IMG/VR virus record: IMGVR_UViG_2874951433_000004
Origin: a virus
Taxonomy: Duplodnaviria; Heunggongvirae; Uroviricota; Caudoviricetes
Strand: one strand, 5' to 3'
Length of the DNA: 33,353 bases
Part shown: positions 8,852-12,092 of the stretch, in pieces
How positions within the stretch are numbered: the stretch's first letter is position 1
Layout of the letters: each line of letters opens with the position of its first letter
Position numbers and translations under genes: made by a program
Notes under the pieces: generated by a model
The model's input: the letters and a program-made list of their open reading frames with translations, nothing else
Told to the model about the DNA's origin: nothing
The model's database searches: none

Positions 8852-9625
8852 ATGTTTGACACAAAGCAAATTAGATACTCAGGTAAAGATGGTATCTATT
8901 TTCACCTTAGAGATAATATAGATGCCTTCTTAACCTTATCAGCAACTGAACAGATGGAATATGACAGCCCTATGATGGTGACAACTCAGGCTATGCAATC
9001 GGGGCAAACTATCACTGATAATGTTCAGAGAGCACCTAAGACCATCTCTATTAGCGGTGTTGTAGTGGTTGATTCGACGGGTTCAGTTCTATTAACCAGA
9101 CAGGGGCAACTTGTAGAAACCTTTATTTCTACGGTTGAACAATGGCGAGACCAGAAGCAAATCATCACTATTGTTTGTAAAGATGGAATATCTATCACTG
9201 ATAGTATCATTACTCAGTTTAAAGCGAGTAAAGAGCATACCATTGCTAATGGTCTTCGTATTCAGATGACCTTCCAAGGTGTAGAATTTCGTTCAATCGT
9301 AGGGCAAACTGATATTTCATCTGCTACTGGCAAGACTGCTACCACGAATGATGGTGGTGCTACCAGCAAAAAGAATACAGGGAACACTACGACAAGTTTA
9401 GGTAACGGTATGTTGATGTGTCAGGAGCTATATAATCGCTCTACGAGTGAACTCACTAATGAGCAACTTCAAGCCCGTATCAATTGTGGTAGAGGTGTCA
9501 AAGTTGAGAACGGAAAAAGCACCTTCTCAGATGCCGCTAATGAGCAAGCTTCAAAGGTGCTTAATAATGCTGGTACAGGTAGTACTTTGAAGAAGTTTTC
9601 TGTTAATCCTAACAAGCGATACTGA
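8852..9625 (+). CDS. hypothetical phage tail-module protein, probably C-terminally truncated by the IS629-like insertion
   Basis: ORF track 257 aa; lies directly downstream of the tape-measure-like gene; its stop codon TGA (9623-9625) is the first three bases of the IS629-like terminus. Confidence 0.5.
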
Positions 9626-9676
9626 ACCGCCCCGGGAATCCTGGAGACTAAACTTCCTGAGAAAGAGGTAAACAGG

Positions 9677-10003
9677 ATGACTAAAAATACTCGTTTTTCC
9701 CCCGAAGTCCGTCAACGGGCAGTCCGTATGGTTCTGGAAAGTCAGGGCGAATATGACTCACAATGGGCGACAGTTTGTTCCATTGCTCCAAAGATTGGCT
9801 GTACGCCGGAGACTCTGCGTGTCTGGGGTCGCCAGCATGAGCGGGATACCGGGGGCGGTGATGGAGGGCTCACCACCGCTGAACGTCAGCGTCTGAAAGA
9901 GCCGGAACGTGAAAATCGTGAACTGCGCCGCAGTAACAATATCCTTCGCCTGGCTTCCGCTTATTTTGCAAAGGCGGAGTTCGACCGCCTCTGGAAAAAA
10001 TGA
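9677..10003 (+). CDS. IS3-family transposase OrfA (IS629-like)
   Basis: ORF track 108 aa ([19 protein letters not shown]...). Confidence 0.85.
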
Positions 10004-10688
10004 TGCCACTGCTGGATAAGCTGCGTGAGCAGTACGGGGGCGGACCGCTATGCAGCGAACTGCATATTGCCCCGTCAACGTATTACCACTGTCAGCAACA
10101 GCGACATCATCCGGATAAACGCAGTGCCCGTGCGCAGCGCGATGACTGGCTGAAGAAAGAGATACAGCGCGTATACGATGAAAATCACAAGGTATACGGT
10201 GTAAAGTCTGGCGTCAGTTGTTACGGGAAGGTATCAGAGTGGCCAGATGCACTGTGGCACGTCTCATGGCGGTTATGGGACTTGCCGGTGTTCTCCGGGG
10301 TAAAAAGGTCCGTACGACCATCAGCCGGAAAGCCGTTGCCGCAGGCGACCGCGTAAACCGTCAGTTCGTGGCAGAACGACCTGACCAGCTGTGGGTGGCT
10401 GATTTTACTTACGTCAGCACATGGCGGGGCTTCGTCTATGTGGCGTTCATCATTGATGTGTTTGCCGGATACATCGTGGGGTGGCGGGTCTCATCGTCCA
10501 TGGAAACGACATTCGTGCTGGATGCACTGGAGCAGGCGTTATGGGCCCGTCGACCGTCCGGCACGGTCCATCACAGTGATAAAGGTTCTCAGTATGTATC
10601 GCTGGCCTACACACAGCGGCTTAAGGAAGCCGGATTACTGGCATCAACAGGAAGTACAGGCGACTCGTATGACAACGCGATGGCGTTG
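10000..10688 (+). pseudogene. IS629-like transposase OrfB, internally frame-disrupted and 3'-truncated
   Basis: OrfB-type sequence is split between ORFs 10000..10356 and 10218..10691 (different frames) and ends at the IS600 boundary before the expected C-terminus. Confidence 0.7.
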
Positions 10689-10731
10689 TGAGGTGTACTG
10701 GCAATAGCGGACACTACCATTTGTTCTTTTT

Positions 10732-11550
10732 TTAAGCAGCCATCTGATGATATTTTTCCCTGAAGGCTGCCGGGGAGATATTCCCCAGACGAGAGTGACG
10801 ACGCTGACGATTGTAGAAAATCTCAATGTATTCCCGTATTACTGAGATGGCTTCATCCCGGTTATTAAAACGATAGTGGCTCAGGCTCTCATTTTTCAGC
10901 GTTCCCCAGAAGCTTTCCATCGGAGCGTTGTCGTAACAGTTACCTTTACGCGACATTGATGTTTTCAGACCAGACTGCTCCTGTATGACCCGGTAATCGT
11001 ATGCGCAGTACTGTGAACCTCGATCAGAGTGGTGGATTAGCCCGGCAGGTGGGCGCTGGCTCCTGAGCGCCATAAACAGGGCTTTACCTGTCAGCTCTTT
11101 TGTCATGCGCTCTCCCATGGCGTAGCCGACAATTTCGCACGTATAAACATCTTTGATGCCAGCGAGGTACAACCATCCCTCCTGTGTGGCAACATACGTC
11201 AGGTCCGCCACCCAGACCTGATTTGGTGCTGTAGGAGCGAACGTCTGGTTCAGCAGATTTGGCGCAACTGGCAGATTGTGGTTCGGGTTCGTAGTCGCTC
11301 TGAACTTGCGTTTCTGCTTACAGCGTAGCCTCAGCTCCTTACGAAGACGTGCCAGTCGGTCACGACCAACGATGATGCCATTCTCTGCCAGCTCCGTCTG
11401 GAGCCGCCGGGTTCCATATGTTTCGCGAGTGCGGATATGTGCCACCTTAATCTCCAGTTTTAGCCGCTCATCACTTTGTTTTCTGTCTGAGGGTTCATGC
11501 TGTACCCAGTTGTAATAACCGCTCCTGGATACACCAAATACCTGACACAT
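10732..11550 (-). CDS. IS600 transposase OrfB (normally made as an OrfAB fusion by -1 frameshifting)
   Basis: ORF track 272 aa with DDE-type motifs (HHSDRGSQY...). Confidence 0.9.
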   Translation of the reverse strand: MCQVFGVSRSGYYNWVQHEPSDRKQSDERLKLEIKVAHIRTRETYGTRRLQTELAENGIIVGRDRLARLRKELRLRCKQKRKFRATTNPNHNLPVAPNLLNQTFAPTAPNQVWVADLTYVATQEGWLYLAGIKDVYTCEIVGYAMGERMTKELTGKALFMALRSQRPPAGLIHHSDRGSQYCAYDYRVIQEQSGLKTSMSRKGNCYDNAPMESFWGTLKNESLSHYRFNNRDEAISVIREYIEIFYNRQRRHSRLGNISPAAFREKYHQMAA

Positions 11551-11585
11551 CGCTTCAATGGGAAATTGTTGTCGCCATTGTTCGA

Positions 11586-11888
11586 TTAACGCGTATTTTT
11601 CAGCGACTCCTGTGCAAAATACGCTGTTGCTTTTTTTAATATATCTCGCTCAAGGCGAGCTTCATTTAACGCCTTACGCAGTTGCAGAATTTCAGATTCC
11701 AGTTCAGCCACCGTGCGGGAACCAGGAGTACCGAGCCCTTTTCTGGCGGCGGTAACCCATTGTCCTAAAGTGCCTTCAGGAAGGGATAATCGGGAAGCGC
11801 CTTCACTGATCGAAAGTTGATTTTCAAGAACCGTTCTGACAGCTTCGGCTTTGAACTCTTTAGAGTAACGTTGGGTTTTTCTGCTCAT
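11586..11888 (-). CDS. IS600 transposase OrfA
   Basis: ORF track 100 aa (MSRKTQRYSKEFKAEAVRTVLENQ...). Confidence 0.9.
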   Translation of the reverse strand: MSRKTQRYSKEFKAEAVRTVLENQLSISEGASRLSLPEGTLGQWVTAARKGLGTPGSRTVAELESEILQLRKALNEARLERDILKKATAYFAQESLKNTR

Positions 11889-11952
11889 TATTAGCTCCTT
11901 CTGATGCCATTCTATTTCAGGAAGGAGTGTCCGTTAAACTCAGGCTACCTCA

Positions 11953-12092
11953 ATATGGTACCCGCGCTTCGGGAACTGATGCAGGCGAAGCATCGCGCAC
12001 AGAAAGCAGTAGATGAGCTGGTGGACTGTGTGGCAGAGCTGGAAACCAGAGTCGGAAAGTTTGAAAAGCTGGTGCAGGAGGTGCTGCGCTGA
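11953..12092 (+). pseudogene. 5'-truncated phage ORF remnant upstream of rusA (N-terminus removed by the IS600 junction)
   Basis: ORF 11904..12092 starts inside the IS600 terminal repeat; only the part after 11952 is phage DNA; its stop overlaps the rusA start. Confidence 0.35.

Follow-up and report, generated by a model that had tools for sequence, protein, structure and literature searches.

A probable microhomology deletion beside IS600 and the juxtaposition of an IS629 remnant with a lambdoid prophage at yecE in Shigella flexneri

Introduction

How does a truncated IS629 come to lie beside a complete IS600 in phage-derived DNA, and does such a neighbourhood mean that one element has inserted into the other? 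The question is raised by a window of 33,353 nucleotides (IMG/VR record IMGVR_UViG_2874951433_000004; by window we mean the whole stretch that was analysed), in which a reading of the sequence without database searches had taken IS600 to be nested in an IS629-like element. The check proposed by this sequence-only reading, a comparison with full-length IS629 and IS600 and with related genomes, identifies positions 1-1067 of IS629, a complete IS600, and the flanks of the latter in a sister lineage of S. flexneri and in enteroinvasive E. coli (EIEC). From this comparison we propose a history of three steps, two of them deletions, by which the IS629 remnant and IS600 were juxtaposed, and we give it a probability of about 0.88.

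Results

The window is 100% identical over 19.6 kb to CP026799.1, an S. flexneri chromosome, and the features around the joint are collected in Table 1.

Table 1. Features on both sides of the IS629-IS600 joint, with positions in the window
Feature	Position	Strand	Remarks
Dit-like tail or baseplate gene	8852..9625	+	full length, 257 aa; Pfam Dit_like, E=2.4e-17
IS629 remnant	9623..10685	+	IS629 positions 1-1067, by alignment to a full-length E. coli copy
IS629 orfA	9677..10003		present, with left inverted repeat
ALIL frameshift pseudoknot of IS629	9958..10074		Rfam ALIL, 115.8 bits
GATGGCG, 7-bp microhomology	10679..10685		equals IS629 1061-1067; also present in phage DNA, 4-10 bp outside IS600
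TTG, native phage flank of IS600	10686..10688		by comparison with lineage-B S. flexneri and EIEC RMDEC465
IS600, complete, 1264 bp	10689..11952	-	99.4-99.8% identical to annotated IS600 copies
IS600 orfB	10732..11550		272 aa
IS600 orfA	11586..11888		100 aa
Artificial fusion ORF	11904..12092		begins within IS600 end
3' 140 nt of 85-aa lambdoid ORF, upstream of rusA	11953..12092	+	98-99% identical to EIEC prophages with intact ORF
rusA	12092..12451	+	Pfam RusA on identical gene
Antiterminator Q gene	12442..13137	+	Pfam Phage_antiter_Q on identical gene

The left repeat, orfA, the ALIL pseudoknot and a partial orfB are shared at 98-99% identity with IS629, an IS3-family element with many copies in Shigella and E. 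coli O157, and the alignment gives 98.1% identity to the full-length E. coli copy over the whole remnant. Unlike the reference, the window copy stops at position 1067 of 1310, has no right repeat and carries a 4-bp deletion (IS629 579-582, after 10200, inside orfB), the last of which varies between strains and is absent from strain 8401. The alignment confirms the abrupt end beside IS600 that had been noticed from the sequence, with the last IS629 base now placed at 10685 instead of 10688. The right inverted repeat was not found in the window, so that the copy has neither the full 1310 bp nor two repeats, and no IS629 sequence occurs beyond 10685 or anywhere past IS600. The first two-thirds of orfB remain, cut exactly at the codon for the catalytic Glu of DD(35)E; the truncated frame ends in ...DNAMAL without the Glu expected 35 residues after HSDKG, and its stop is the terminal TGA of IS600 (10689-10691). 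The remnant is dead and immobile, and one side of any target duplication has gone with its right end.

To the left, the Dit-like gene is part of a small integrative element that lies within yecE. That an IS terminus supplies its stop codon, as had been suggested, is literally true, as the IS629 left end opens with this TGA (9623-9625), but it is without consequence: three intact E. coli homologues, likewise of 257 aa, end in ...TAC or TAT, TGA and then CGATAG, with a native TGA at this same position, so that the protein keeps its full length.

IS600 itself matches the IS600 of Shigella and E. coli in length, in its TGAGG...CCTCA termini and in having orfA and orfB. It reads TGAGGTGTACTGGC...GGCTACCTCA, starting with TG and ending with CA as expected; copies 99% identical to it bear the RefSeq label IS3-like element IS600 family transposase, for identical ones a 385-aa product with HTH_Tnp_1 and rve is called, and the presence of both frames provides for a potential OrfAB transposase. 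What separates it from ordinary IS600 is its surroundings. The 3-mers on its two sides are indeed unlike (TTG at 10686-10688, ATA at 11953-11955), so that no 3-bp duplication is seen, whereas at three ordinary insertion sites of IS600 elsewhere the duplication is perfect (ATG, TGG and TTC); moreover, its flanks lie 11.2 kb apart in the parental prophage. Neither a matching direct repeat nor IS629 continuing past IS600, the two findings that the sequence-only reading had said would speak against it, occurs in the window. Its statement that the far side of IS600 is phage DNA and not IS629 was also correct, as the 3' end of an 85-aa lambdoid ORF is followed there by rusA; rusA and the Q gene are part of an ipaH-carrying lambdoid prophage remnant, which is the partner DNA of the joint.

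The few bases between the two elements are accounted for by related genomes. Nine S. flexneri genomes, which we call lineage B, carry the same IS600 with an identical right junction, IS600 followed by ATATGGTACCC, while their left flank is phage DNA, ...CGCTTGTCAGGATGGCGTTG up to IS600, ending in ...CAGGATGGCGTTG; its similarity to the window begins exactly at 10679. In EIEC RMDEC465 the prophage at yecE is free of IS600 and natively reads ...CAGGATGGCGTTG followed by TCGGAATCC and ...CGTAAAG followed by ATATGGTACCC, the two places being 11,244 bp apart. As the EIEC prophage carries the same flank, the 10 bp GATGGCGTTG beside IS600, which are found also in genomes without IS629 there, are, judged by sequence comparison, native phage DNA. 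IS629 in fact reads GAG where the window has TTG, and no copy extending across TTG was found among more than 21,000 IS629 places in E. coli genomes. A sequence variant of IS629 was considered as the source of TTG and rejected, the best of these matches all ending at 10685; a kept circle-junction spacer or a 5' flap of IS600 integration was likewise rejected, TTG being the native phage flank.

With both parents in hand, the joint can be read to the base. IS629 reads ...AACGCGATGGCG before GAG, the phage reads ...GTCAGGATGGCG before TTG, and the joint reads ...AACGCGATGGCGTTG; the heptamer GATGGCG is thus found in both parents and once in the product, as in a deletion through microhomology. It occurs a single time in IS629 and a single time in the phage left arm, and it ends exactly 3 nt outside IS600. 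A microhomology of at least 7 bp would arise by chance with P = 4.2e-4, as estimated from 400,000 joints drawn at random from these sequences. Moreover, in an ancestor reconstructed from three relatives, 11 of the 3,068 possible repeat pairs of at least 7 bp fall within 10 bp of the IS600 end, a position that hints at a role for this end. The joint is a deletion through GATGGCG, with a size that we infer to be about 7 kb, and neither a joining of an IS end to IS629 nor a crossover between two IS copies. The earlier suggestion that an IS-mediated deletion or recombination joined unrelated segments therefore holds as far as a deletion in an IS-rich region is concerned.

The surroundings of the locus agree with a deletion as well. 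Its left side is cmoA-yecN-yecE', and its right side in S. flexneri 8401 and EIEC consists of dinI, a short fragment of yecE (so labelled in the EIEC annotation), yecD and aspS; the resulting order cmoA-yecN-yecE'-element-IS-prophage-dinI-yecD-aspS is that of K-12 and EIEC. The flanks retain their ancestral order and orientation, which argues for a deletion and against an inversion. Lineage B retains window bases 1-67, followed by IS911, and therefore once had the small element, which was lost there by a separate deletion.

As regards distribution, the same three junctions recur at seven loci, drawn from six independent S. flexneri assemblies that are complete or nearly so, and the IS629-IS600 joint was seen solely in the lineage that comprises 8401, M90T and CP026799. 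A contiguous joint was not found in E. coli genomes or plasmids, Shigella pINV included, where seeming full-coverage matches are two separate pieces 400-800 bp apart. Among the matches listed for the exact 18-mer GACAACGCGATGGCGTTG in species-representative genomes none is enterobacterial, and there are only chance matches in GC-rich genomes. In the genomes reached through the proteins of the element, the arrangement was either the same or cut off by a contig end at IS629, and no genome was found with the full ancestral state, namely a complete IS629, the recombinase, the prophage left arm and IS600 together.

Discussion

The history that we propose would start from two tandem elements in yecE, later fused by deletion: a first one of about 10 kb, ending in tape-measure, Dit-like and serine-recombinase genes, and a second one, the lambdoid prophage with ipaH. 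In step 1, an older IS600-associated deletion would have taken 11.2 kb out of the prophage, between an early-left gene and the ORF that precedes rusA, and would have left one IS600 with the unrelated native flanks TTG and ATA; the missing target duplication is explained by this deletion. Recombination of two directly repeated IS600 copies, of which the parental pair was not observed, or an adjacent deletion by IS600 could have been the route, and the arrangement is common to all S. flexneri genomes examined. In step 2, IS629 would have entered the Dit-like gene at the exact boundary of its last sense codon (TAC) and its native TGA, with a presumed ancestral right junction of the IS629 right end, TAC and TGACGATAGAATC..., followed by the serine recombinase. 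Step 3 would be the deletion of about 7 kb, from GATGGCG at IS629 1061-1067 to the identical heptamer 4-10 bp outside IS600, taking away the 3' end of IS629 together with the recombinase gene, the middle part of yecE and the prophage arm from int to the early-left genes, with IS629(1-1067)-TTG-IS600 as its product. Its mechanism would be illegitimate recombination at short homology, by replication slippage, strand switch or microhomology annealing, and it may have begun at a nick made by the IS600 transposase a few nucleotides outside the recipient end. The junction sequences, the common right junction, the native origin of GATGGCGTTG and the collinearity are observed; we infer the order of steps 2 and 3, as well as the enzymology.

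Against this history stands most directly the nested insertion of the sequence-only reading, in which IS600 entered IS629 at 1067-1070 and the far flank was replaced later by an IS-mediated deletion or by IS600-IS600 recombination. IS-in-IS insertions are abundant in Shigella, IS629 stops abruptly at an intact IS600 end, and an absent duplication would fit a second event. Yet the bases adjoining IS600 are TTG and not the GAG of IS629, the 3 bp between the elements and the 7 bp before them are phage flank in other S. flexneri and in EIEC, including places that have no IS629, and there is neither host-IS sequence on both sides nor a duplication derived from IS629; the claim of nesting is given up, and we regard such an insertion as scarcely tenable. 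Slightly less improbable, though still very unlikely, is an adjacent deletion made by the transposase, with the right-repeat end of IS600 joined directly into IS629 as an intramolecular target. Deletions adjacent to IS copies are common, and a breakpoint at the IS600 end with no duplication is what they would leave; this joining, however, would put the terminal TG of IS600 straight against the target, whereas 3 bp of the old flank survive and a 7-bp microhomology lies at the joint. An artefact, with a collapsed repeat joining two IS copies, deserves hardly any credence: IS copies often break or mis-join assemblies, and draft contigs do stop at the Dit/IS629 boundary, but the junctions recur identically in independent assemblies, strain 8401 and two of M90T among them, and are therefore no product of assembly.

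Within the microhomology deletion itself, two readings differ in the part played by IS600. Plain replication slippage, with the right end of the deletion beside IS600 by chance, has about an even chance of being the whole explanation, as the product can be explained without a transposase signature and a 7-bp repeat is enough for RecA-independent deletion in E. coli. The rarity of candidate repeat pairs so near the IS600 end speaks against it, and so does the end of the microhomology exactly 3 nt away, which is the attack site expected in copy-out for an IS with 3-bp duplications. By these position statistics the transposase may have had a role in step 3. In copy-out transposition the attack strikes the DNA that immediately flanks the recipient end (PMC7780238), and a model of strand switching to microhomology has been proposed for IS-adjacent deletions (bioRxiv 10.1101/2023.06.07.543989). 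The joint could accordingly be the scar of an abortive IS600 copy-out, with a nick 3 nt outside the recipient end, a strand switch, during replication or repair, to the 7-bp microhomology about 7 kb away, loss of flanking DNA, and the IS staying in place; we hold this only tentatively, and would rather bet against it.

Comparable cases are the deletions by which Tn6330 loses ISApl1, and the excision and flanking deletions of IS629 stimulated by IEE. There too a short direct repeat next to an IS of a circle-forming family marks the joint and, as in the window, one of the endpoints falls a few nucleotides beyond the end of the IS. They differ in that here the IS is kept and flanking DNA is lost, and that the microhomology has 7 bp instead of 2-4 bp. 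A breakpoint 3 nt outside an IS3-family end together with a 7-bp microhomology is what one would expect to see if flanking deletions are seeded by copy-out nicks. If the abortive copy-out were true, IS3-family elements could wear away the DNA around them while staying in place and with no recombination between IS copies, in agreement with the strand-switch model put forward for IEE and ISApl1; prophage integration, immunity and recombinase genes would be what was eroded here.

More generally, the junction is ordinary genome decay in Shigella, of an already known kind, and its importance beyond bookkeeping is small. It shows how a pair of mobile elements in yecE became a single remnant, no longer mobile but still with ipaH, and it cautions that an IS adjoining a truncated IS is no proof of nested insertion. 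Such joints can be read base by base when sister lineages are compared. IS-mediated prophage decay is the same process in the same organism as in the comparison of Sf8401 with Sf301, but the joint is a local deletion, unlike the inversions between these genomes, which the Sf8401 genome paper ascribes to IS629, IS600, IS1 and IS4; the present locus is not discussed in that paper (PMC1550401).

Several further copies were seen alongside. In one EIEC strain, IS600 occupies a different site in the same prophage region, with the duplication ATG. Similarity reaching into the flanks of IS600 copies on pINV and on an O145 plasmid was set aside as chance, these copies having the normal duplications TGG and TTC. 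A match of the DUF4376 protein elsewhere in CP026799.1 had raised the thought of a chimeric window, which was dropped, as the match belongs to a paralogous second ipaH prophage that is 99.9% identical and diverges after 31750.

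The joint between IS629 and IS600

The window comes from the Shigella flexneri chromosome: its bases 1-19625 match CP026799.1 at 100% identity, against 99.5-99.7% for strain 8401 and further serotype-5-like genomes. It carries two well-known, annotated IS3-family elements, an IS600 that looks intact and an IS629 remnant, the latter 98.1% identical in alignment to a full-length E. coli IS629 copy. The 3-mers flanking IS600 are unlike (TTG vs ATA), just as the sequence-only reading had it, with no matching direct repeat; three normal IS600 insertions from other records are each bordered by a perfect 3-bp duplication (ATG, TGG, TTC). 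To the right of IS600, ATATGGTACCC... belongs to the 3'-terminal 140 nt of a lambdoid ORF of 85 aa that precedes rusA and Q, and no IS629 sequence occurs past IS600 in the window, so that the far side is indeed phage DNA. The end of IS629, which had been placed at 10688, has to be moved, since the match stops at 10685 and the TTG is not IS629. With its coordinates, its differing 3-mers and the lack of IS629 beyond IS600, the earlier observation is thus real and correct apart from that end, while its interpretation needs correction.

Features of the window around the joint and in the prophage
Feature	Position	Strand	Remarks
Dit-like tail protein ORF	8852..9625	+	Pfam E=2.4e-17; ends in IS629 terminal TGA
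IS629 remnant	9623..10685	+	aligned to IS629 positions 1-1067
IS629 orfA	9677..10003	+	retained, as is the left inverted repeat
ALIL frameshift pseudoknot	9958..10074		kept in IS629 remnant; 115.8 bits
Truncated IS629 orfB	10218..10691		ends at IS600 terminal TGA
TTG	10686-10688		between IS629 remnant and IS600
IS600	10689..11952	-	complete, 1264 bp; 99.4-99.8% identical to annotated copies
IS600 orfB	10732..11550	-
IS600 orfA	11586..11888	-
IS110-family transposase gene	14321..15517	-	at joint within 13624..15780
Fused minor-tail ORF	22088..23029		313 aa
ipaH split ORFs	32248..32505; 30755..32218	-	85 aa; 487 aa; within 30755..32505

A nested insertion of IS600 into IS629, as previously proposed, is contradicted by the bases at the joint: IS629 has GATGGCG|GAG at its positions 1061-1070 and the window GATGGCG|TTG, and in a comparison with 3,534 E. 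coli genomes, which contain more than 21,000 IS629 places, no place matches across the TTG. Moreover, looking up the RusA protein of the window led to nine other S. flexneri genomes (lineage B) with the same IS600, the same spacing to rusA and an identical right junction, in which the left flank of IS600 is phage DNA, ...AAAACGCTTGTCAGGATGGCGTTG|TGAGG; their alignment with the window begins precisely at base 10679, which is the G of GATGGCGTTG. At the same yecE site the EIEC genome RMDEC465 has a more complete lambdoid prophage lacking IS600, where ...CTTGTCAGGATGGCGTTG|TCGGAATCC... is unbroken native sequence within an early-left gene, and where ...CCGTAAAG|ATATGGTACCC... lies inside the 85-aa ORF, 11,244 bp further on. 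Both comparisons identify GATGGCGTTG as phage DNA, and the window's joint therefore corresponds to a deletion between a phage heptamer and an identical IS629 heptamer, each occurring once in its own partner sequence; for a random joint of these sequences the probability of at least 7 bp of microhomology is 4e-4. Seven fetched loci, drawn from six independent assemblies, show the three junctions of this arrangement in identical form. We give a probability of about 0.9 to a plain microhomology deletion, without IS600 inserting into IS629.

The product of this deletion holds one copy of the 7-bp repeat present in both parents, with flank order and orientation kept, which is the signature of short-homology illegitimate recombination by slippage, strand switching or microhomology annealing. 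Of the suggestion that an IS-mediated deletion or recombination joined unrelated segments, the deletion stands, and IS600 may have seeded it, at a likelihood that we put below even. Copy-out-paste-in transposition has the cleaved donor end attack flanking DNA a few nt beyond the recipient end (PMC7780238), and for an IS with a 3-bp duplication the attack site lies at -3, exactly where the microhomology ends; for IEE-stimulated IS629 excision and for ISApl1 loss, a model in which copy-out switches strands to microhomologies nearby has been put forward (bioRxiv 10.1101/2023.06.07.543989). In a reconstructed ancestor, just 11 of 3,068 candidate repeat pairs of at least 7 bp fall within 10 bp of the IS600 end. 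In S. flexneri, prophage decay and rearrangement driven by IS elements are documented (PMC1550401), where the IS629-IS600 joint is not mentioned, and the joint is biologically ordinary.

In E. coli 2013C-4830 (NZ_CP027325.1; L002, the fetched locus, 4290..4400), a complete IS629 is followed directly by a 37-bp inverted IS600 right-repeat tip, a 3-bp spacer GAG and a full IS600, a head-to-head repeat junction that resembles an IS3-family end-to-end junction product.

Consequences for the reading frames

The stop of the Dit-like gene had been read as the IS629 terminal TGA, which holds at the sequence level. Three E. coli genomes with the same element and without IS629 have a Dit-like gene that is likewise 257 aa long, ending ...TAC/TAT TGA|CGATAGAATC; the IS629 site thus lies precisely where the final sense codon meets the native TGA, and the IS-borne TGA restores the stop at the same position, leaving the protein neither shorter nor longer. 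There is a parallel coincidence at the other joint, where the IS629 orfB is cut exactly at the DD(35)E Glu codon (...HSDKG-35 residues-E becomes ...DNAMAL*): TTG from the phage takes the place of the catalytic GAG, and the frame is halted by the IS600 terminal TGA (10686..10691). A stop supplied by a TGA-starting IS3-family end is a one-in-three event each time. With its right repeat missing, its orfB cut at the Glu codon and the frame of orfB additionally shifted in this strain by a 4-bp deletion (IS629 579-582, absent from strain 8401), the remnant is dead.

History of the yecE locus

The locus is collinear with the K-12 backbone, with cmoA, yecN and the 3' part of yecE on the left; to the right of the prophage, S. 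flexneri 8401 and EIEC have dinI, then yecD, interrupted by an IS110-family element, and aspS, and between dinI and yecD lies a short 5' yecE stub, so annotated in EIEC. The small element interrupts yecE in E. coli and is closed by a serine-recombinase gene right after the Dit-like gene, and in EIEC the lambdoid prophage is placed at the yecE 5' end, from which it follows that the S. flexneri ancestor had both in tandem. Both S. flexneri lineages have the IS600 with TTG/ATA flanks, which therefore marks an earlier loss of 11.2 kb that covered the immunity and replication region; it came about either through recombination of two direct IS600 copies or through an adjacent deletion. In a related EIEC prophage an IS600 lies about 1.1 kb away, in the helicase gene and with a normal ATG duplication, which shows that the region was struck repeatedly, though at differing sites.

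After the 11.2-kb loss the two lineages went separate ways. The window's lineage keeps the small element through the Dit-like gene, and the heptamer deletion would by reconstruction have removed about 7.0 kb, namely the IS629 3' end, the recombinase gene, mid-yecE and the int-to-early-left arm. Of the window's sequence, lineage B has no more than the first 67 bp; IS911 comes next and then the prophage xis-to-early-left arm, an arrangement left by an independent IS-adjacent deletion. Most S. flexneri genomes have the small element cut to these 67 bp, adjoining the IS911 left end and then the xis region (4020.. in L142, a lineage B locus). In the window's lineage the small element is without its recombinase and the prophage without int, xis, immunity and replication genes, so both are fixed in place, the prophage remnant keeping an ipaH gene.

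The small element (window 1..9622; complete relatives at the fetched loci L013, L151 and L152) is integrative and about 10 kb long; of its products only three are recognisable, an HNH endonuclease, a TMP_3 tape-measure protein and the Dit-like protein. The Dit-like gene shares about 77% nucleotide identity with a gene of lytic phages of the Felix-O1 type (Felixounavirus), and the element may be a satellite or an island carrying tail genes.

The prophage lysis, terminase and head genes are missing between a four-tRNA cluster (13314..13623) and gpFI (15781..), and the joint there, with its IS110-family gene, is a second deletion scar associated with an IS, present in both S. flexneri lineages. 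The lambdoid tape-measure gene, intact with 1013 aa in lineage B, is split into overlapping ORFs (19016..20236 and 20028..22088), and about 90 bp absent at ~22326-22337 relative to EIEC and lineage B fuses two minor-tail genes. The ipaH gene, undivided and 583 aa long in other S. flexneri genomes and EIEC, is split in the window's strain, and a second ipaH prophage tail region, 99.9% identical, lies next to cysJIH and cas3 in the same genome (locus L129).
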